Shown: positions 3,081-11,621 of the stretch, one piece after another
How positions within the stretch are numbered: position 1 is the first letter of the stretch
Layout of the letters: every line of letters begins with the position of its first letter
Assembly (NCBI GenBank): GCA_037133055.1
Contig: JBAXOY010000002.1
Coordinates: 2,985 to 66,984, forward strand
Length of the DNA stretch: 64,000 bases
Source of the DNA: Chlamydiota bacterium
GTDB taxonomy: Bacteria > Auribacterota > Tritonobacteria > UBA1439
Direction of reading: 5' to 3'
Translations under genes and position numbers: made by a program
The notes under the pieces: generated by a model
Database searches by the model: none
What the model saw: the letters and a program-made list of their open reading frames with translations, nothing else
Told to the model about the DNA's origin: nothing

Positions 3081-3731
3081 ATGAAAGTCATGGCATTTAA
3101 TGGCAGCCCTAGAAAGGAATGGAATACGGCAACCCTGCTCAAAAAAATCCTCGAGGGTGCTGTATCAAAGGGCGCCGAGGCCGAGCTTATCCATCTCTAT
3201 GATCTGCGCTACAAGGGATGTATCAGTTGTTTCGCCTGCAAGGAAAAGGGCGGAAGGAGCTATGGAAAATGCGCGGTACAAGACGATCTATCGCCGATCT
3301 TCAAGAAGGTCAAGGCGGCGGATGCGGTTATCTTCGGCTCTCCGATCTATCTAGGGAGCGTAACCGGGGAGATGCAGTCATTCATGGAGCGCTTGGTATT
3401 TCCCTGCATCAAATACACCGATCCGCCGGAATCTCTCTTCCCCCGGAAGATACCAACGGGCTTTATTTATACAATGAATGTCAACGAGGAGCAAATGGCC
3501 GAGTTCGGCTATAGCCAGCGCTTGGCGAGTATTGAGCGCCTTCTCAGAATAATCTTCGGGTCAAGTGAGATGCTCATCTGCTGCGATACCTGTCAATTTG
3601 AGGATTATTCGAAGGTAGTCGCGCCTCGCTTTGATCCTGAAATGAAATCAAGGAGACGCAGGGAGGTATTCCCAAAAGACTGCCAAAAGGCCTTTGAGAT
3701 GGGCGCGCGATTTGCCAACTATACCGGATGA
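3081..3731 (+). CDS. flavodoxin-fold NAD(P)H-dependent FMN reductase / iron-sulfur-flavoprotein-like protein
   Basis: A GGGAGG ribosome-binding site sits 8 nt before the ATG at 3081. MKVMAFNGSPRKEWNTATLL... is the FMN-reductase N-terminus. There is a CISCFAC Cys cluster, and the motif ADAVIFGSPIY. Confidence 0.6.
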   Translation: MKVMAFNGSPRKEWNTATLLKKILEGAVSKGAEAELIHLYDLRYKGCISCFACKEKGGRSYGKCAVQDDLSPIFKKVKAADAVIFGSPIYLGSVTGEMQSFMERLVFPCIKYTDPPESLFPRKIPTGFIYTMNVNEEQMAEFGYSQRLASIERLLRIIFGSSEMLICCDTCQFEDYSKVVAPRFDPEMKSRRRREVFPKDCQKAFEMGARFANYTG

Positions 3732-4017
3732 ACGATCTTCGAGCAGGAACCGCTCGCCTGGCGAGCCGCCGGAATCAGGGCCCCAGGCGCCGCCCGCGGA
3801 CCTATCGCATCGGTTCGCAACCCGGGCCGCCGAAATATCCGGTGACATGATCGAACGCATCAAGGTCGTTAATAACGGTGCCAGCAAAACATCAGGGTCA
3901 CCTCGACTATTGACAGATGAAGATGACTCGAAGTTTTGCCAGGAGTGCGGCAAGAAGATATAGCTGAAACCATCTCTGGCCGGCTGTCACTCGGTCTCCT
4001 GCGGTCCCGGGGGTCCC

Positions 4018-5142
4018 ATGAGTAATGAGTACGCCGTATCAGGTTCGCGATCCGGGATCGTTACAGGAGCGACCCTCGATCCCGATGTCCAGCGGAAACT
4101 AAAGCAAGCTCTGCGCCCCGCTTCTTTCTTCGAGGAGACACCGTTATCTCCCTCGCCGGATTACCGGTCGCCCAACGCGTGGGCTGCGCTTCCCTGGAGA
4201 AAAGACGATGCGAACGCCGCCCCGCCCAATACGCGCTATCCGGAGGCGCAGGCGACCGCCGTGGCGGACGTCTTCTTCGTCCATCCCACGGGCTACCTGA
4301 AGGCGGCCTCGTGGAACGGGCCGATCGACGATCCCGACGCGGTGCAGGCGGCGTCGCTCGTAATGAAATACCTGGCAAGCTCGTTCAATGCGGGGGCGCG
4401 CGTGTATGCGCCGCGCTACCGGCAGGCAACCCTCTATGCCTTTCTCGACTATGAGACCCTTTCCGGCGTTCAGGCCCTTGATCTTGCCTACTCCGATGTG
4501 GCGCGGGCCTTCGACCGTTACATCTTGGAGTACAATCATGGGCGGCCCTTCATGCTCGCCGGACACAGCCAGGGGAGCAACCACGCCCTTCGCCTCCTCC
4601 AGGAGAAGATTATCGGCGCGCCCCTCCAGAAAAGGATCGTGGCCGCCTATCTCATCGGGATGGCCATCCCAAGGGAGATCCCCGGAATCCGGCCCTCCCG
4701 CACCGCAACCGACACGGGCGGCGTCATAAGCTGGACCTCCTATACGCGCGACGGGCACCCGCGCTTCCTTACCCGCGACATGGCGATTTGGTTTGGCGGG
4801 GCATACAGGAAAGCGGAGGGGCTGGCCCTCGTCCAGGTCAATCCCCTCTCGTGGGAGTTGAACGGGGAGGAGGTTCCTGCATCAAGCAATCCGGGCTCAC
4901 TCCCGTTTTATAACCCGGCCGGTGACCCTCCGCCGCTGGTCCCGGGGGTCACCGGGGCTGACGCCTCCGGGCGGGTCCTGATCGTCGAAAAACCCGTTGT
5001 ACCGGGCTTCCCGGGCTCGGGTCCGGAGATGCCCATCCTCAACGCGGATTTCGGCGACTATCACGATTATGACTACGTGCTCTTTTACGAGAGCATCCGC
5101 AAGAACGTGATCGACAGGGCAAAACGATTCGGTAAAGAATAG
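4018..5142 (+). CDS. alpha/beta-hydrolase-like protein, DUF3089 family
   Basis: 374 aa. The lipase-like nucleophile elbow GHSQGS and the overall pattern of DUF3089 proteins are present. Confidence 0.55.
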   Translation: MSNEYAVSGSRSGIVTGATLDPDVQRKLKQALRPASFFEETPLSPSPDYRSPNAWAALPWRKDDANAAPPNTRYPEAQATAVADVFFVHPTGYLKAASWNGPIDDPDAVQAASLVMKYLASSFNAGARVYAPRYRQATLYAFLDYETLSGVQALDLAYSDVARAFDRYILEYNHGRPFMLAGHSQGSNHALRLLQEKIIGAPLQKRIVAAYLIGMAIPREIPGIRPSRTATDTGGVISWTSYTRDGHPRFLTRDMAIWFGGAYRKAEGLALVQVNPLSWELNGEEVPASSNPGSLPFYNPAGDPPPLVPGVTGADASGRVLIVEKPVVPGFPGSGPEMPILNADFGDYHDYDYVLFYESIRKNVIDRAKRFGKE

Positions 5143-5314
5143 AGCCACTCCAGGATCTGACCCCGGCGTTTTGATCGATAGAACCCTCAGGAACGTCGCA
5201 ACCCCCGGGGCGATCCGTCCCAGGAATATCCCGGCGACGATGCAAAGGATAACTCACACCGTGAGATACCTCTCGAAAAACCCAGCCCCCGTGCGGCCTG
5301 TTTCGCCGAGGCGC

Positions 5315-6196
5315 TCATCGCCTGTTCCTCCCCGCTGATGGAGCCGCGCTCCCTCCCTTGACCGCCTCCACCTTGATGCTCACGACCGACTCTTCCAGCT
5401 CCCGTATCTTTTCCGGACTTGACCCGTACGCCTCCACGACCGCCTTCGCCGTTACGTCATTGGCCATATCCGCGATCGGGAACGCCCGCTCATCCAGGAC
5501 CTCGATCCCTCCAAACCCCGCGGCTTTAAGGGCGCCTAGATACTCGTCCTTGAGAAGCGCCCCCGAGATGCATCCGACGTAGGCCGATACGGAATCCCTG
5601 ATCGCCGCCGGGAGTTCCCTGCATAGCACGATGTCGGACACCATCAGCCTCCCACCGGGCTTCAGGACCCGGAACGCCTCGCGGAATACCCGCGGTTTGT
5701 CCGGCGAGAGATTGATCACACAGTTCGAGATGATGATATCCACGGAATCGTCATCGACGGGGAGTTTCTCGATCTCCCCGAGCCTAAACTCTACATTCCC
5801 CAATCCCCATCCCCGTGCGTTCTCCCGGGCCTTTTGGATCATCTCGGGCGTCATGTCCACGCCGATAACCCGCCCCGTCTTCCCCACCCTGCGGGCCGCG
5901 AGAAAACAATCGAAGCCCGCGCCCGAGCCGAGGTCGAGAACCGTCTCCCCCTTCTTCAGCGACGCGTGTGCGAGCGGGTTCCCGCACCCGAGGCCGAGGT
6001 TCGCCCCCTCGGGAGCCGCCCGGAGATCCTCTTCAGAGTAGCCTACGTGCGCGCTTATGGACTCGGCCGTGCCGCCCGAACAGCACGAAGACGAAGGCCC
6101 GCAGCACGATTTCTGTCCCTTCGCCACCTTCGCATACCCATCCCGGACGATCCGCCGTATGCGGGTCTCGTCCGTCGTAGTTACTCGGTTTTTCAT
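5315..6196 (-). CDS. arsM: arsenite S-adenosylmethionine methyltransferase
   Basis: 293 aa. The N-terminal Cys-pair region (SCCGPSSSCCSGG) is followed by the SAM-MTase motif VLDLGSGAGFD and conserved downstream cysteines (ISNCVINL, YVGCISGA). The architecture is ArsM/Cyt19. Confidence 0.85.
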   Translation of the reverse strand: MKNRVTTTDETRIRRIVRDGYAKVAKGQKSCCGPSSSCCSGGTAESISAHVGYSEEDLRAAPEGANLGLGCGNPLAHASLKKGETVLDLGSGAGFDCFLAARRVGKTGRVIGVDMTPEMIQKARENARGWGLGNVEFRLGEIEKLPVDDDSVDIIISNCVINLSPDKPRVFREAFRVLKPGGRLMVSDIVLCRELPAAIRDSVSAYVGCISGALLKDEYLGALKAAGFGGIEVLDERAFPIADMANDVTAKAVVEAYGSSPEKIRELEESVVSIKVEAVKGGSAAPSAGRNRR

Positions 6197-6239
6197 GTCA
6201 TTCTCCCTTCCGGAGATTCTACTCCCCTGCTTTTACTTC

Positions 6240-8141
6240 TCACCCAGCCGCCGTTTCACGCTTTGACCAGAGCAGAAGAGTGGAACTGAAGACGACCGTC
6301 ACGCAACCCGCCTCCTGAAAGATGACCGCAATAATCGGTGTCATCAATCCCATGACGCCCAGGGTGAGCCCGATGACGTTGTAGATCATGGAAAAAAAGA
6401 TGTTCAGTTTGATCCGACGCAGGACTTTCGCCGACATCCACATAAAATCGGCGACACCTGATATATCATCGTTCATCAGGGTGACGTCGGCCGTTTCTAT
6501 GGCCACGTCCGTGCCGGCGGCGCCCATGGCGATCCCCACATCGGCCAGCGCGAGGGCCGGGGCATCGTTGATGCCGTCGCCGATCATTCCGACGATATGG
6601 CCTTCGGCCTGCAGTTTCCTGACATACTCCTGCTTCTGCTCGGGGAGCATTTCGGCCTGGAAATCATCAACGCCGATCGCCCTGGCCACCGCTTCGGCTA
6701 CCTGGGGATGATCGCCGGTCAGCATGGTAATTCTCTTGACCCCCAGCGTCTTGAGCAGCCGGATGGTTTGGGGGATCTCAGGACGGATCTCATCGGCAAT
6801 CGCCAGCAAACCCAACACTTCCTCGTTGTGCGCGACGAGGACGGCGGTGTGTCCCTGTTCCGATTGTTTTACAATCTCGCGCTCAACCCGGGAGACGATG
6901 GGCACACCGGCCTCCTGCAGGAAGGCCCGCTTTCCGACAAGGATATTCGCGCTGTTCCATCGGGCTTCAACCCCCATGCCCGTGGCGCTCACGAAATGGT
7001 CCGGGTCGGGAATGTCGAGGTTCCTCTCTCTGCCGGCGGCCAGGATGGAACGCCCCAACGGGTGCTCGGAATATTTTTCCGCGATGCACGCCATGCGCAG
7101 AATATCCTCCGGGCCCTTGCCGTTGAAGGAGATGATGCCTTCAACCTTGGGCCTGCCGAAGGTGAATGTCCCCGTTTTGTCCACGAGAAGGCGGTCTATC
7201 TTATGGCCAAGTTCCAGGAAGATACCGCCCTTGATGAGGACCGCCCGGCGGGCCATGGTGGAGACACCGGCGGTCACGGCGGTCGGCGTGGCTATGGCGA
7301 AGGCGCAGGGGCACGCCACAAGCAGAACGGAAACGGCGACCCTGACATCGCCGGAAATGACAAAGGCGATGATCGCAAGCAGAAGCACCGCAGGCAGAAA
7401 CCATGCGGTGAAACGGTCCGCCATATTCTGAATGGGCGCGCGCGTACCCTGTGCTTCCTGAACCAGGTGCACAATCCGCGCGAGGGTGGAGTTCTCTCCG
7501 ACCTTTACCGTGCGAATGTCGAGCCGTCCGGACTCGTTGAGTGTCCCGCTGAACACGCTGCTTCCCTGGAACTTCTCAACCGACATGGACTCGCCGGTGA
7601 TCGGGGCCTGGTTGACGCTGCTTGCCCCGGCGGTCACCACGCCGTCCACCGGGATCCGTGCGCCGGGCTTGACCACCACCACGTCACCCACGCGAAGTTC
7701 GGCGACCGGGACGACGACCTCTTCCCCCTGCCGGCGAACCGTCGCCATCCTGGGGGCAAAGTCCAGAAGGTCGCGGATGCTCTTCCGGGTCTTGTCCAGG
7801 GTGTAGGACTCCAGCGCCCCGGCGGCGGACATGATGAAGACGATAATGGCGGCGGGCCTGAACTCGCCGACCGCCATTGTGGCCAGGAGTGCGACCACGA
7901 CAAAGACATTGACCGTGATCTTCCACTTGAAGATATCCTTGAACCCGGAAATGAACCTTTGATAGCCGCCGAATACGACGGCGACGATGGCGAGCGCCGC
8001 ATTCACGAAAGACGGGCCGATTTCCCGGTGCGCGAGAATCCAACTCGCCAGGGTCAGGGCCGCAACGGCGGCCGGGACGATGGACAGGACGGCAAGGTCC
8101 CTGTACCGGGATCCATCGTGTCTTTCGTGTCTGCTCATCAC
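6240..8141 (-). CDS. heavy-metal-translocating P1B-type ATPase lacking an N-terminal HMA metal-binding domain
   Basis: 633 aa. It has the CPC transmembrane metal site (VLLVACPCAFAIATP), the phosphorylation motif DKTGTFT, the hinge GDGINDAPALA and the TGES loop. The protein begins directly in the membrane domain. Confidence 0.85.
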   Translation of the reverse strand: MMSRHERHDGSRYRDLAVLSIVPAAVAALTLASWILAHREIGPSFVNAALAIVAVVFGGYQRFISGFKDIFKWKITVNVFVVVALLATMAVGEFRPAAIIVFIMSAAGALESYTLDKTRKSIRDLLDFAPRMATVRRQGEEVVVPVAELRVGDVVVVKPGARIPVDGVVTAGASSVNQAPITGESMSVEKFQGSSVFSGTLNESGRLDIRTVKVGENSTLARIVHLVQEAQGTRAPIQNMADRFTAWFLPAVLLLAIIAFVISGDVRVAVSVLLVACPCAFAIATPTAVTAGVSTMARRAVLIKGGIFLELGHKIDRLLVDKTGTFTFGRPKVEGIISFNGKGPEDILRMACIAEKYSEHPLGRSILAAGRERNLDIPDPDHFVSATGMGVEARWNSANILVGKRAFLQEAGVPIVSRVEREIVKQSEQGHTAVLVAHNEEVLGLLAIADEIRPEIPQTIRLLKTLGVKRITMLTGDHPQVAEAVARAIGVDDFQAEMLPEQKQEYVRKLQAEGHIVGMIGDGINDAPALALADVGIAMGAAGTDVAIETADVTLMNDDISGVADFMWMSAKVLRRIKLNIFFSMIYNVIGLTLGVMGLMTPIIAVIFQEAGCVTVVFSSTLLLWSKRETAAG

Positions 8142-8195
8142 GCAACGCTCCTGCCTTCCAGCCGTACCGGGATTCGTGCAACGTCAACGACACGA

Positions 8196-8393
8196 TCAAC
8201 CGCAGCACGAACCAGTACGGTCATTTTTCTTCCCGTTTTTCTCCTTGCCGCTGTCCGATTGAGACGGGCCGCCACAGCTTTCTCCCGAGCCGCAGCACCC
8301 CCCGGTCTTGGTCATGGATTCCCATATCGCGGACAGGAACCCTTTCCCCTTTTTCCGGTTTTTCTTCGCCGTTTCCTTCTCATTCAGTTCCAT
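8196..8393 (-). CDS. small Cys-rich protein with vicinal Cys pairs; possible metal/metalloid-binding chaperone
   Basis: The most likely start is the ATG at 8393, preceded by GGAAAGGGAGG. The protein is MELNEKETAKKNRKKGKGFLSAIWESMTKTGGCCGSGESCGGPSQSDSGKEKNGKKNDRTGSCCG, with two CC pairs. It sits immediately upstream of the P1B ATPase on the same strand. Confidence 0.4.
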   Translation of the reverse strand: MELNEKETAKKNRKKGKGFLSAIWESMTKTGGCCGSGESCGGPSQSDSGKEKNGKKNDRTGSCCG

Positions 8394-8412
8394 CGCACTG
8401 CCTCCCTTTCCA

Positions 8413-9120
8413 TTAGAATGTTGCCAACAGATAGAACCCCGCGCAGACAAGCAGAACACCGGCGACGGTTCGGATCGCGGCATCCGCCTTCTGCGCCTTG
8501 AGCGAAGCCTTTCCGAACGAAACTCCGAACAGGATGGCGCTGAGCGGCAGGCTGAACCCGACCGCGAATGCGGTCATGAGCGCCATGCCCCACAGGATTC
8601 GCCCCATCAACACGCTGGCGCCGATGACGATAAATATGCCGGGATTACACGGCAACGAACATGCCGCCACACCGCCGCCGAGAAACAGTCCCCCCATCGC
8701 GGCGCCCATCTTCCCTCCGGACGCCGAAGGCGCGCCGTCTTTCCGGGCGCGGCCCGGCAGCATGAACGGGAGCAGTTTCAAAGCGGCCAGACCCAGGACT
8801 ATCGCTGTCGCCCCTGCGAACAGTTTCCAGTACCGTCCAAGAAACGCCTGCGCCGTCTGGCCGACAAGCCCGGCCACAAACCCAAGAATAATCAGCGCCA
8901 GTGTGGTGCCGACAAGGAACCATACCGCTGACACGGACGCCGAACGCCGGTCCGCGTCCCGCCGCGTGCCCGAATAGGCCACCAGCATGCCCATCGCCGG
9001 CAGGGTGCAACACGCGCTCGCCACCGCGCTGACCAATCCCAGCAGGAATGCCAGCGGCAACGCCGCCGGCCCCATACTGGCCGCCTGGAGTGCTTCTGTA
9101 ACCCGCTGCAGCATATACAA
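8413..9120 (-). CDS. CcdA/DsbD-family transmembrane thiol-disulfide electron transporter
   Basis: 235 aa with about 6 TM helices. Conserved Cys residues sit in TM segments (ASACCTLPAMG and VAACSLPCNPG), typical of CcdA/DsbD_2. Confidence 0.7.
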   Translation of the reverse strand: MYMLQRVTEALQAASMGPAALPLAFLLGLVSAVASACCTLPAMGMLVAYSGTRRDADRRSASVSAVWFLVGTTLALIILGFVAGLVGQTAQAFLGRYWKLFAGATAIVLGLAALKLLPFMLPGRARKDGAPSASGGKMGAAMGGLFLGGGVAACSLPCNPGIFIVIGASVLMGRILWGMALMTAFAVGFSLPLSAILFGVSFGKASLKAQKADAAIRTVAGVLLVCAGFYLLATF

Positions 9121-9135
9121 TACTCCTTACCTGCA

Positions 9136-9819
9136 TCACTTGGGGCAGCATCCGGACCCGGCTGCCGGACCGCATCCGCGGGCATTCGATGCCCCCACAA
9201 ATGCCTGGACAAGCTTCGTTTCCGTAATCTCCCCGGAAACCGCACTCATCCCGCGTCCCTTGACCATCGCGAGCACCGCCGGCACGGCGACTTGCGCCGT
9301 TATCTGCTCGTAGTCGCGCGCGCCCGGCTTCAGGGTGAAGACGCCGAGCTTGCCCCCCCGGGTTTCGAGCGTCCGCACCGCGCTCCGGATCTGCGCCGCC
9401 GGCGCATTCCCGGCTTTCTCTTTTTTGTCGGGCAGGAAAATGAAGACCGCGTTCGTATCGGCGGCTACCGTGTTAAGCTCTGAAAGCGCGCCGATTTCCC
9501 TTCCGGCTATCGTGTCCATGGTCGCCGGCGCATCATTCTTCGCAGAAGAGATGTCGCCTGCCGACGCGTACGTCTGTCCCGTCGCCTGCGCGGACGCAAA
9601 GCCTGACACGGCCTTATCGGCGGACACTGCTTTGGCCTTCACCACGCTCCGCGCCGCCACCACCAACGCCGCCGCCAGCACCACTGCTCCAATGACCCAG
9701 CGCACTCGACCCGAACCCCCCGCGGCATGGCACCCGCATTCGGGCCCACAGGCCTCGGGCTGCTGCTTCAGCGATTCCCTAGTGTCTGTTTGTTTCCGGT
9801 CTTCATTCGGCGTATGCAT
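9136..9819 (-). CDS. membrane-anchored hypothetical protein with Cys-rich N- and C-termini (possible periplasmic redox or metal-binding partner of CcdA)
   Basis: The N-terminus has CGPECGCH, followed by a TM helix (VIGAVVLAAALVVAA). The C-terminus has GCGPAAGSGCCPK. It lies in an operon between arsR and ccdA. Confidence 0.4.
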   Translation of the reverse strand: MHTPNEDRKQTDTRESLKQQPEACGPECGCHAAGGSGRVRWVIGAVVLAAALVVAARSVVKAKAVSADKAVSGFASAQATGQTYASAGDISSAKNDAPATMDTIAGREIGALSELNTVAADTNAVFIFLPDKKEKAGNAPAAQIRSAVRTLETRGGKLGVFTLKPGARDYEQITAQVAVPAVLAMVKGRGMSAVSGEITETKLVQAFVGASNARGCGPAAGSGCCPK

Positions 9820-9863
9820 CGCTCATTCTCCTTTTGTCCATTGTTTTCAAACACAACAACCCT

Positions 9864-10262
9864 TCACGGCTTGCAGAAGAGCCTCTGGCAGAGGGCGTCC
9901 AACCCTTCCCCGCAAATCCTCTTGAGGTGCTTCCGGTCCGCCACAATCTCAGCAGTCTTTTCCATGTCGATGAACAAAGGAGCGAGTACCTTGCCTGCCG
10001 AGGGCGACCTGAACTCCTTCGACAACCGGTAGTACATCCACCTGCCTTCCTTGCGGCTGTCCACGAGGCGCGCAGACCGCAGGATCGTCAAATGCTTTGA
10101 CACGGTAGACGGCGCCAGCTCAAGCAATGCGATGAGCTGACAGACGCAAAGTTCGCCGCCCTTAAGCGCATACAGAATCCGCATCCGTTTCTCGTCGGCA
10201 AGCGCCTTGAGCATATCCATGAGGTCATGCATAATCGCCTCCATCATTTCGTTATGTGGCAA
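9864..10262 (-). CDS. arsR: ArsR/SmtB-family metalloregulatory repressor
   Basis: It has a winged-HTH with the metal-binding ELCVCQL motif in the recognition-helix region. It is the first gene of the minus-strand metal/arsenic operon. Confidence 0.8.
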   Translation of the reverse strand: MPHNEMMEAIMHDLMDMLKALADEKRMRILYALKGGELCVCQLIALLELAPSTVSKHLTILRSARLVDSRKEGRWMYYRLSKEFRSPSAGKVLAPLFIDMEKTAEIVADRKHLKRICGEGLDALCQRLFCKP

Positions 10263-10396
10263 AATGTACTATATTTGCCGTCCCTTGTCAATGCCCGATT
10301 TGATTTCTGAGTCAGGCTCCTGTCATCTTGGGTGACCCCTATTCTGGACAAGAGTGACCAACACTCTAAGGTATCCGTCGTGTCCGCCAGCTATCT

Positions 10397-10434
10397 TCGG
10401 GGGAGGCCTGAATGGTCTCCCCCGAATTTTTTCT
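10397..10434 (+). terminator. orphan intrinsic terminator: a perfect 9-bp GC-rich stem (TCGGGGGAG / CTCCCCCGA), an 11-nt loop, then ATTTTTTCT
   Basis: Read directly from the sequence. There is no annotated plus-strand gene upstream within 5 kb, so it may end a small transcript that diverges from the arsR promoter. Confidence 0.5.
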
Positions 10435-10607
10435 GGACATTTTCTGGAGATTGTCTGCTATGGAAATAGATCTTTGATGGGTGTGTCTCTAAAAGTCGCA
10501 TATTTTGAACAGCAGTGGTAAAATAGCTTCATTGCTCATCGGCCCCTGTTAGCAGGGAGCTCTAGATCATATACGATTCCTCACACTCGGCGAAAGGCGG
10601 TGACATC

Positions 10608-11621
10608 GTGAAGGCAGTGTTATTGTTCTGCAGCATGATGCTTGGCATGAACGCGTATGCGTCGAGCCCAGGGTATCACGTGATCAAGAAGGTGCAACTC
10701 GGCGGCGAGGGCCGCTGGGACCTTCTGACCGTGGACAGCGCGGCCCGGCGGCTGTACATTTCCCGGAGCTCCCACGTGATGGTCATCGACCTCGACACGG
10801 ACAAGGTGGCGGGCGACATCCCCGACACTCCGGGCGTGCACGGCATCGCGCTCGCGGCCGAGTTGAATCGAGGTTTCACCAGCAACGGCAAGGCGGATAC
10901 GGCGACCATTTTCGACTTGAAAACACTGAAGGTCCTCGGCCATGTGAAAACGGGGAAAAATCCCGATGAGATCCTGTATGACCCCGCCTCCAAGCGGGTG
11001 TTTACCTTCAATGGCCGGAGCAACGACGCCACGGTGTTCGACGCCGCCTCCGGAGAGGTTGCGGGCACGATCGCGCTCGGCGGAAGGCCGGAATTTGCGA
11101 AGGCGGACGGCAGGGGCGCAATCTATGCGAATATAGAGGACACAAGCGAGGTCGTGGAAATCGACAGCCGGAAGCTCGCGGTCACAAAGCGCTTTTCGCT
11201 CAAGCCCGGCGAAGAGCCTTCGGGAATGGGATTGGATGCGGAGCATCACCGGGTCTTCTCGGGATGCCACAACAAGATGATGACCATTCTGGACACGGAG
11301 GCAGGCAAAGTGATCGCAACCGTCCCGATCGGGGAAGGGGTCGATGGAAACGGCTTTGATCCGGGAACCGGTTTGGCGTTCAGCTCCAACGGGGACGGCA
11401 CTCTCACGGTGGTGAGGGAATCGTCGCCGGGCAAATTCGAGGCGGCTGAGACCGTTACGACACAACGCGGATCGCGCACGATGGCCATCGATCCCAAGAC
11501 CCACATTCTTTATGTGCCCGCCGCGCAATTTGGCCCGACTCCGGCCCCGACATCGGAAAACCCGAGACCGCGGCCAACAATGATCAAGGACAGCTTCGCA
11601 CTCCTGGTGATCGGGAAATGA
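10608..11621 (+). CDS. secreted YVTN-family beta-propeller repeat protein
   Basis: It has a signal peptide and repeated about 40-aa units (e.g. LYISRSSHVMVIDLDTDKVAGDIP, VFTFNGRSNDATVFDAASGEVAGTI) typical of YVTN/NHL-like propellers. Confidence 0.7.
   Translation: MKAVLLFCSMMLGMNAYASSPGYHVIKKVQLGGEGRWDLLTVDSAARRLYISRSSHVMVIDLDTDKVAGDIPDTPGVHGIALAAELNRGFTSNGKADTATIFDLKTLKVLGHVKTGKNPDEILYDPASKRVFTFNGRSNDATVFDAASGEVAGTIALGGRPEFAKADGRGAIYANIEDTSEVVEIDSRKLAVTKRFSLKPGEEPSGMGLDAEHHRVFSGCHNKMMTILDTEAGKVIATVPIGEGVDGNGFDPGTGLAFSSNGDGTLTVVRESSPGKFEAAETVTTQRGSRTMAIDPKTHILYVPAAQFGPTPAPTSENPRPRPTMIKDSFALLVIGK

Follow-up and report, generated by a model that had tools for sequence, protein, structure and literature searches.

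The 64,000-nucleotide (nt) stretch analysed here, hereafter the window, comes from contig JBAXOY010000002.1 of the Chlamydiota bacterium assembly GCA_037133055.1 and carries on its minus strand a six-gene operon running from an arsR regulator gene to the methyltransferase gene arsM (Table 1). The four genes between them encode a membrane protein of 227 amino acids (aa), named P227 here, a CcdA-like protein of the DsbD family, a small protein of 65 aa and a P1B-type ATPase. The small open reading frame (ORF) is almost certainly a functional partner of the pump, and we propose that its product serves the ATPase as a dedicated chaperone or adaptor.

Table 1. Features of the window and selected genes of related loci. 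Positions preceded by an L number refer to that locus.
Feature	Position	Strand	Evidence or remark
arsR	9864-10232	minus	HTH_5 9e-17; NF033788 98 bits (cutoff 55); ELCVCQ motif
P227, 227 aa	9136-9819	minus	no Pfam or NCBIfam match; one predicted transmembrane helix, residues 42-60; six Cys
CcdA/DsbD-family protein, six transmembrane helices	8413-9114	minus	DsbD_TM (PF02683) 42.1 bits (cutoff 27.1); DsbD_2 37.8 bits
Small protein, 65 aa	8196-8393	minus	no Pfam or NCBIfam family match
P1B-type ATPase, 632 aa	6240-8138	minus	E1-E2_ATPase and Hydrolase domains; HMA absent
arsM, As(III) S-adenosylmethionine methyltransferase	5315-6196	minus	NF008823 364.5 bits (cutoff 263); last gene of the operon
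Sigma-70-like promoter TTGACA-17-TACATT	10263-10291	minus	directly upstream of arsR
GC-rich hairpin	10396-10426		13-bp stem, then T-run
Beta-propeller gene	10608-11621		divergent from arsR
Second P-type ATPase, 857 aa	12083-14656	minus	Cation_ATPase_N and Cation_ATPase_C; type II/III-like, not P1B
Giant ORF, 3068 aa	23077-32283	plus	in a high-GC stretch
Giant ORF, 3318 aa	52254-62210	plus	in a high-GC stretch
Low-GC segment	1-2000		GC 0.47-0.50; gene for a major facilitator superfamily transporter
Low-GC segment	40001-42000		GC 0.47-0.50; CsgG-like and helix-hairpin-helix genes
arsD	L028 3089-3397		between CcdA-like gene and small ORF
arsD	L041 9382-9687		between CcdA-like gene and small ORF
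arsD	L043 2398-2667		between CcdA-like gene and small ORF
arsD	L054 4414-4743		between CcdA-like gene and small ORF
arsD	L026 6279-7229		fusion with P227
hgcA	L037 424-1485
hgcA	L044 6104-7144
hgcA	L047 6103-7170
hgcA	L052 13772-14809
hgcA	L054 525-2079		hgcB also present
DUF6951 gene	L028 6008-6340
DUF6951 gene	L054 8004-8336

The operon and its conserved gene pair

Read from arsR to arsM, the six genes are separated by gaps of 44, 21, 19, 57 and 43 nt. The same six genes, the 65-aa one included, were called independently in the NCBI metagenome-assembled genome (MAG) contig GCA_964409435.1, whose ATPase copy is 100% identical to that of the window, and the initial annotation's description of a tightly spaced operon on one strand is therefore accurate. 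The sigma-70-like site agrees with the consensus in 10 of 12 positions, is the top site within 5000-10700 and probably represents the promoter and operator region of the operon. Between this site and the divergent beta-propeller gene lies a hairpin that resembles a terminator, yet no obvious gene precedes it on that strand. ArsR has 122 aa counted from the ATG at 10232, and its ORF of 132 aa reaches back to a TTG at 10262. It combines the HTH_5 domain with the ELCVC motif of As(III)-type ArsR/SmtB regulators, and ELCVCQ is kept among the ArsR proteins linked to the module. In the numbering of the 132-aa ORF, the motif holds C39 (conserved in 39/39 sequences) and C41 (38/39), and the third cysteine of the R773-type CVCxxC is missing from the window protein. 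C125 near the C-terminus is present in 36 of 39 sequences and may replace it. The product of the last gene scores above the cutoff of the ArsM family model.

The small protein belongs to a family without a Pfam or NCBIfam model. A search of 5.8 billion proteins returned at least 142 homologues of 50-83 aa (E<=0.01), all labelled 'hypothetical' and none with a Pfam domain. A profile search of 1.84 billion cluster representatives gave 66 members (representatives at 50% identity), nearly all stand-alone and 46-97 aa long; it turned up no member fused to an ATPase or a larger protein, and the few longer matches resemble miscalled starts or unrelated repeats. Twelve residues are invariant in an alignment of 35 sequences (E25, S26, M27, T28, K29, G31, G32, C33, C34, G35, G37 and C40), and the consensus of the core reads (I/L)WESMTKTGGCCGxGxxC. 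Over 50 loci the entropy of this core amounts to 0.59, 0.32 and 1.32 at codon positions 1, 2 and 3, a pattern with a variable third position that indicates purifying selection on a protein. It is hardly credible, then, that the ORF arose by chance or is a translated leader without a function of its own. Its shortness, partly low complexity, lack of a database family and poor structure model would fit such an origin, but the number of homologues, the invariant residues and the entropy pattern contradict it, as do a GGGAGG of its own 8 nt ahead of the ATG and its gene calls in independent assemblies.

The protein is laid out as a basic N-terminus, an amphipathic helix, an invariant GGCCGSGxxC cluster and a charged disordered tail, and no transmembrane (TM) segment is predicted. 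The conserved part of the helix, GFLSAIWESMTK, carries F, L, I, W and M along one face. A structure model with a predicted local distance difference test (pLDDT) score of 53 contains a single helix at residues 4-29, with the remainder unstructured. The window protein includes GGCCGSGESCGG and ends in SCCG. Both of the vicinal cysteine pairs emphasized in the initial annotation are thus present, but the C-terminal one is kept in just 6-7 of 51 orthologues; the hallmark of the family is one vicinal pair with a third cysteine six residues further (CCx5C). The suggestion of an ArsD-like soluble chaperone has likewise to be narrowed to a similarity in cysteine chemistry. The protein matches no family and is modelled as one amphipathic helix, whereas ArsD (PF06953) has a thioredoxin fold with Cys12-Cys13-Cys18, and it differs from CopZ and other HMA proteins in having neither PF00403 nor a CxxC in its conserved core. 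A reading of the small cysteine peptide as the precursor of a ribosomally synthesized and post-translationally modified peptide was rejected: its recurrent neighbours are arsenic genes, thioredoxins and ATP-binding cassette components, with no modifying enzyme among them.

A scan of one genome per species produced 52 loci, almost all of them in MAGs of Verrucomicrobiota, Kiritimatiellia, Lentisphaerota/Victivallales and Planctomycetota (Phycisphaerae, Sedimentisphaerales, Pirellulales), with single records from Myxococcales, Gammaproteobacteria, Elusimicrobia and Omnitrophota. In 47 of them the small ORF is followed, on its own strand, by an ATPase orthologue of 62-88% identity, at an estimated spacing that ranges from a 35-nt overlap to a 233-nt gap. 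The other five comprise one ATPase remnant, one contig edge, one small ORF cut by the contig start and then followed by the ATPase, and two loci without an ATPase. The reverse look-up, which started from ATPase homologues picked only for their long contigs, found a motif-bearing gene of 59-63 aa directly upstream in four out of four cases. Synteny of the small ORF with a P1B ATPase had been set beforehand as a check on the proposed partnership, and it is kept across the Planctomycetes-Verrucomicrobia-Chlamydiae (PVC) superphylum and beyond. The P227 and CcdA-like genes are always adjacent to each other; they precede the small ORF and ATPase in about 20 loci, which is the order of the window, and follow them in about 16. 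This placement on either side defines two sub-modules, each of which is kept when the order changes. The small ORF and the ATPase occur as a pair on their own in several lineages (L004, L008, L021). In L026 and L047 the ATPase has been lost and the small ORF still stands beside P227, the CcdA-like gene and ACR3, which speaks for a role that is not solely pump-dependent.

A pump without a metal-binding domain

The ATPase scores clearly as a P1B pump (PF00122, 6.6e-55; PF00702, 1.4e-30; TIGR01525, 568 bits against a cutoff of 346), with DKTGT at 321, CPC at 277-279, N580(x)6Y587N588, F608-Q-E-A-G-C613 and S619-S620. Hydropathy predicts eight TM helices, the first of which begins near residue 18. 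The HMA domain (PF00403) is absent from the window protein and from all 120 homologues listed, and an N-terminal Cys/His motif was not found in these homologues either. The observation that the protein starts in the membrane domain, with no N-terminal metal-binding domain, is thus upheld. A pump that has neither HMA nor a Cys/His motif would need an external donor. Its second helix (MB) retains the GG kink (FGGFQRF), which in CopA is the platform for chaperone docking.

The same helix of the small protein that could dock on this platform allows another explanation, namely that the protein belongs to the pump as a regulatory or structural subunit, comparable to KdpF, sarcolipin/phospholamban or MgtR, or acts as a cytosolic thiol buffer, and does not donate the substrate. 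Its IWESMTK segment is conserved more tightly than metal binding alone requires, the helix is the sole structure predicted and, being amphipathic, could sit at the membrane interface, and the gene overlaps or abuts that of the ATPase, as subunit genes often do. We nevertheless consider this explanation improbable, because the helix is immediately followed by the invariant CCx5C array, which to our knowledge is not a feature of known regulatory peptides of P-type ATPases. The lack of a TM segment, the pump without a metal-binding domain of its own and the survival of the small ORF after ATPase loss also speak against a subunit.

Its motifs set the ATPase apart as a separate and tightly conserved clade, matching neither the P1B-1 nor the P1B-2 pattern. 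The CPC (LLVACPCAFAIATPTAVT) is identical in 41 of 41 orthologues and, together with the N(x)6YN kept in TM5, agrees with P1B-1; the HMA (CxxC) of this group is missing, as is the Pro of YN(x)4P, which is replaced by T593. The signature of P1B-1 pumps in the last helix is P(x)6M(x)2SS, with the Met as a Cu ligand (PMC5552934). The last helix of the clade has the consensus FQEAGC(V/I/L)TVV(F/L)SSTLLLW, in which FQEAGC is invariant. An alignment to ATP7B places Q609 at the signature Pro, V616 at the Met and S619-S620 at the SS, which puts Val in place of the Cu-binding Met; the invariant C613 lies three residues ahead of this position, one helical turn away. P1B-2 pumps carry T(x)5QN(x)7K in TM5 and DxG(x)7N in TM6 (PMC5960188). 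In the window ATPase, TM5 (NIFFSMIYNVIGLTLGV) contains no Lys, and TM6 (FQEAGCVTVVFSSTLLL) has Glu for Asp and no Asn seven residues past the Gly. The best solved relatives are, in this order, Archaeoglobus CopA (1e-117), a P1B-4 pump, Legionella CopA and ZntA. With scores of 464 against 313 for the Cd family (TIGR01512) and 430 against 397 for the Cu family, the protein passes both NCBIfam cutoffs, and its subgroup assignment by hidden Markov models is ambiguous. A grouping with stand-alone Zn/Cd exporters, the second check set beforehand, was not found: the nearest solved structures are those of Cu(I) pumps and the invariant TM6 signature is the clade's own. The interpretation in the initial annotation came through both checks and is supported in part. 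The second P-type ATPase of the window is encoded 2 kb from the operon.

Arsenic context, cysteine sites and a proposed mechanism

Clustering of all neighbours in the 52 loci places the module among arsenic genes. ACR3 (TIGR00832, 463 bits) occurs in 28 loci, an arsC of the low-molecular-weight phosphatase type in 17 and an ArsP_1-family permease in 14; arsM, found in 21 loci at varying positions, is a variable accessory of the module. Thioredoxins (9/52), ArsF-family proteins (7/52), DGC-domain proteins (5/52), DUF6951 (4/52) and hgcA (NF040863, 416 bits; 4/52, and one further locus, L054, outside the 52) are less frequent. None of cop, cus, czc and merA was recovered as a recurrent neighbour in this clustering. 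A look through the rest of the 64-kb window found no ACR3, arsC, ArsP_1 permease or hgcA. Four loci have an arsD gene between the CcdA-like gene and the small ORF, and a fifth has it fused to P227. ArsD is normally the chaperone of ArsA, and no arsA was seen in the gene lists of the arsD-bearing loci checked; ArsD must therefore serve another partner here. The initial annotation had proposed detoxification of arsenic or a soft metal, and the neighbouring ACR3, arsC, arsM and arsD genes strengthen its arsenic side. The substrate itself we infer: a group-15 metalloid is somewhat favoured, most likely As(III) and/or Sb(III), possibly methylarsenite.

Several further genes were observed around the module. 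In five loci hgcA is found within a few genes of it, usually right behind ACR3. The association of hgcAB with ars genes has already been documented in a report in which no P-type ATPase is mentioned (PMC7438021), and the ATPase module beside hgcA has not previously been remarked on. A DUF6951 protein of 110 aa, whose GCCAGC combines a vicinal pair with a third cysteine, is encoded directly after the ATPase or near the module in five loci (L028, L054, L013, L014 and L048). In L054 (4930-5784) arsD and the small ORF are separated by a gene of the PEP_mutase family. L055 carries MerB-thioredoxin fusions and a fusion of ArsM to an AhpD-like CMD domain (1-1497 and 3092-4324). In L057, genes for an MtrA-like and a CMD protein separate arsC from P227 (3355-4320).

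P227 has 535 homologues and no family assignment. An N-terminal CGPxCxC is followed by the TM helix at 42-60, a variable linker of Ala, Pro, Ser and Thr, a domain at about 105-215 that shows a thioredoxin fold in the structure model, and a Cys-rich tail with GCGP-type repeats (GCGP...GCC). No cysteine, and hence no CxxC of the thioredoxin type, occurs anywhere in this domain; the cysteines are confined to the tail and the N-terminal motif, where C24 and C30 are conserved in 38/38 sequences and C28 in 30/38. Profile-profile comparison with the neighbouring ArsF-family and thioredoxin proteins gave no significant match (probabilities 0.3-2%). The fusion in L026 joins an ArsD domain (MCCSSGVC...) in frame to the N-terminus of P227, which, together with the lack of a signal peptide, argues for a cytoplasmic location of the N-terminal motif; the thioredoxin-fold domain would then be periplasmic. 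L026 looks partly degraded (8080-8613 and 10234-10554), with a truncated ArsP_1-like ORF, arsC fragments, a shortened small ORF and no ATPase following it, and the fusion is therefore a lead and not proof.

The CcdA-like protein carries SACCTLP in TM1, with C37 conserved in 39/41 and C38 in 41/41 sequences, and LPCNP in TM4, with C158 in 40/41; C154 occurs in only 12/41, and a CxxC in TM4 is thus not conserved. It has the DsbD_TM domain and the one conserved cysteine each in TM1 and TM4 that mark the CcdA/DsbD family, and C37 is an extra, non-canonical one. Paralogues of the DsbD family encoded in these neighbourhoods carry the canonical single-cysteine motifs SPC and GPC and no vicinal pair. 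An assignment to ArsG does not apply, as the protein reaches 31.9 bits against a cutoff of 200 (NF040495). In L011, L013 (3895-5048), L014, L022 and L038, canonical DsbD-family proteins partner with members of the ArsF family (NF040494), and these neighbourhoods hold, besides P227 and the CcdA-like protein, a second membrane pair of a thioredoxin-like and a DsbD-like protein.

Periplasmic maturation pathways classically couple CcdA to a thioredoxin-like protein anchored in the membrane, such as ResA or CcmG. The module might thus deliver a metal or metalloid to the periplasm for the assembly or modification of extracytoplasmic proteins, with P227 and the CcdA-like protein acting as in cytochrome or cuproenzyme maturation. 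Pumps of the FixI/CcoI type are P1B ATPases that serve biogenesis, not resistance (PMC5552934). We regard such a role as very improbable, since no target enzyme gene recurs in the neighbourhood clustering, regulation falls to an ArsR with a CVC motif, resistance genes surround the module and P227 has no CxxC of the kind used by maturation thioredoxins.

A common theme of the five core proteins is a set of three invariant or nearly invariant cysteines in each: 39/41/125 in ArsR, 33/34/40 in the small protein, 277/279/613 in the ATPase, 37/38/158 in the CcdA-like protein and 24/28/30 in P227, to which its Cys-rich tail is added. Three thiolates are the established coordination of As(III) and Sb(III) in ArsR, ArsD and ArsA, and sites of this kind can also hold Hg(II), Pb(II), Cd(II) and Cu(I). 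We infer the following route. The cytosolic 65-aa protein would capture the metalloid on C33, C34 and C40, dock by its invariant amphipathic helix on the ATPase and pass the substrate by thiol exchange to an intramembrane site formed by C277, C279 and C613, from which ATP hydrolysis would drive it out to the periplasm. P227 would join the CcdA-like protein in a cysteine relay spanning the same membrane, with CGPxCxC of P227 on the cytoplasmic side, the CC and C of the CcdA-like protein within the membrane and the thioredoxin-fold domain and Cys-rich tail of P227 in the periplasm. The relay may keep a periplasmic acceptor thiol site reduced, or it may hand the metalloid outward itself. The supply of reducing power through CcdA suggested in the initial annotation is a conjecture, and the vicinal CC in TM1 sets this protein apart from canonical CcdA. 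For the module as a whole, read as ArsR-controlled, ATP-driven efflux of a trivalent metalloid with a small chaperone and a thiol relay of P227 and the CcdA-like protein, we consider the chances evenly balanced. A more far-reaching version is doubtful: the ATPase clade would be a P1B subgroup for trivalent As and Sb with a three-cysteine site and an obligate chaperone of 50-70 aa from a new family, and P227 with its CC-bearing CcdA-like partner would put the DsbD fold to a second, non-redox use, with three-cysteine sites in series carrying the metalloid from the cytoplasm through the membrane to the periplasmic tail and fed by ArsD in some lineages.

Several points weigh against metalloid efflux by this route. 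The module is known from its genes and sequence, from which binding and function of the components are deduced; the structure model of the small protein is of low confidence, the absence of fusions deprives its direct interaction with the ATPase of fusion evidence, and the topology of P227 is deduced from one ArsD fusion in a partly degraded locus. Many loci already hold ACR3 and an ArsP-type permease, and a further arsenic exporter seems redundant. The closest solved relatives of the ATPase are Cu(I) pumps, the passing of both the Cd- and Cu-family cutoffs means that the substrate is not fixed by sequence, and the conserved E610 of TM6 is a feature more typical of divalent-metal pumps, whose carboxylate it recalls.

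These properties of the ATPase, along with the retained CPC, N(x)6YN and SS, would suit a pump for a soft metal cation (Cu(I)/Ag(I), Cd(II), Pb(II), Zn(II) or Hg(II)), with the small protein as its chaperone and the arsenic genes merely co-resident in a mixed resistance island. The affinity of Cys3 sites for Hg, Cd, Pb and Cu(I), the adjacency of hgcA in five loci and the MerB fusions of L055 point in the same direction, and TtArsX is an arsenic-linked P1B pump that can also be a Cd pump (PMC5960188). We find this alternative unlikely. The recurrent neighbours are ACR3, arsC and arsM, in 17-28 of the 52 loci, and not cop, cus, czc or merA; arsD, the gene for an As(III)/Sb(III)-specific chaperone, lies inside the module in five loci; Val replaces the Cu-binding Met of MxxSS in the aligned register; and TM5 without Lys and TM6 without DxG(x)7N leave no P1B-2 signature (motifs from PMC5960188).

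The partnership of a small protein with a P1B pump has not previously been described for arsenic genes, and its novelty lies in a putatively chaperone-fed pump that combines two unannotated protein families with a distinct ATPase clade and is widespread in uncultured anaerobic PVC bacteria. If the proposed metalloid efflux is correct, As or Sb would have a further ATP-driven export route, and one that is common among uncultured anaerobes of the Verrucomicrobiota, Kiritimatiellia, Lentisphaerota and Planctomycetota. Two protein families now lacking annotation would gain a definition, the module would offer a natural test case for the loading of a P1B pump that has no metal-binding domain, and WESMTKTGGCCG with FQEAGC could be used as a sequence marker for the module in metagenomes. 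Many of its carriers have arsM and several have hgcAB, and such organisms shape the methylation of As and Hg in anoxic waters and sediments. Elsewhere in the window, two giant ORFs stand out in high-GC stretches, and two segments have a GC content below the background of about 0.6.

Comparison with known systems

The arsenic-linked P1B pump TtArsX of Thermus thermophilus, a P1B-2 ATPase, confers As and Cd resistance under the control of TtSmtB (PMC5960188). Both it and the window ATPase are P1B pumps placed under an ArsR/SmtB repressor, and TtArsX adds to arsenic resistance in this setting (PMC5960188). Its N-terminus bears an HMA with CXXC, six TM segments are predicted for it and its P1B-2 signature is complete (SXP/CPC, T(x)5QN(x)7K, DxG(x)7N) (PMC5960188); of these features the window ATPase shares the CPC only. 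No small partner protein has been described for TtArsX. The logic of a small cytosolic donor and its pump recalls CopZ-CopA, as do the eight TM helices, CPC, N(x)6YN, SS and the GG kink of MB. The module differs from this pair in that HMA occurs in neither partner, Val takes the place of the Met of MxxSS, the Pro of YN(x)4P is lacking and the invariant FQEAGC adds a cysteine to TM6, and its context is one of arsenic and not of cop/cus genes.

A six-TM protein of the DsbD family beside a single-pass protein with a thioredoxin fold is shared with CcdA/DsbD and ResA/CcmG-type pairs and with ArsF-ArsG. Unlike the former, P227 has no CxxC and TM1 of the CcdA-like protein holds a vicinal CC in place of a single cysteine; unlike ArsF-ArsG, P227 shows no detectable similarity to the ArsF family and the CcdA-like protein stays far below the ArsG cutoff. 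The likeness to ArsD-ArsA consists in a soluble protein with a vicinal cysteine pair and a third cysteine, encoded directly upstream of its presumed partner ATPase. The cysteines are spaced CCx4C in ArsD (MCCSSGVC in the ArsD domain of L026) and CCx5C in the small protein, which has neither the ArsD domain nor the thioredoxin fold and about half the size of ArsD. Its partner is a P1B membrane pump, whereas ArsA is a soluble ATPase.

The named matches of the small-protein family search include no member from Comamonas, the genus of a further system, AntR-AntC-AntA of Comamonas testosteroni JL40. This system joins a metallochaperone and a P-type ATPase for Sb(III) with a regulator of the ArsR family (PMC12641948). 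Neither a counterpart of the P227 and CcdA-like pair nor arsM features in the published account of the ant operon. AntC is described as sequestering the metalloid for delivery to AntA (PMC12641948), and by this functional description AntR-AntC-AntA is the known system closest in logic to the module of the window.

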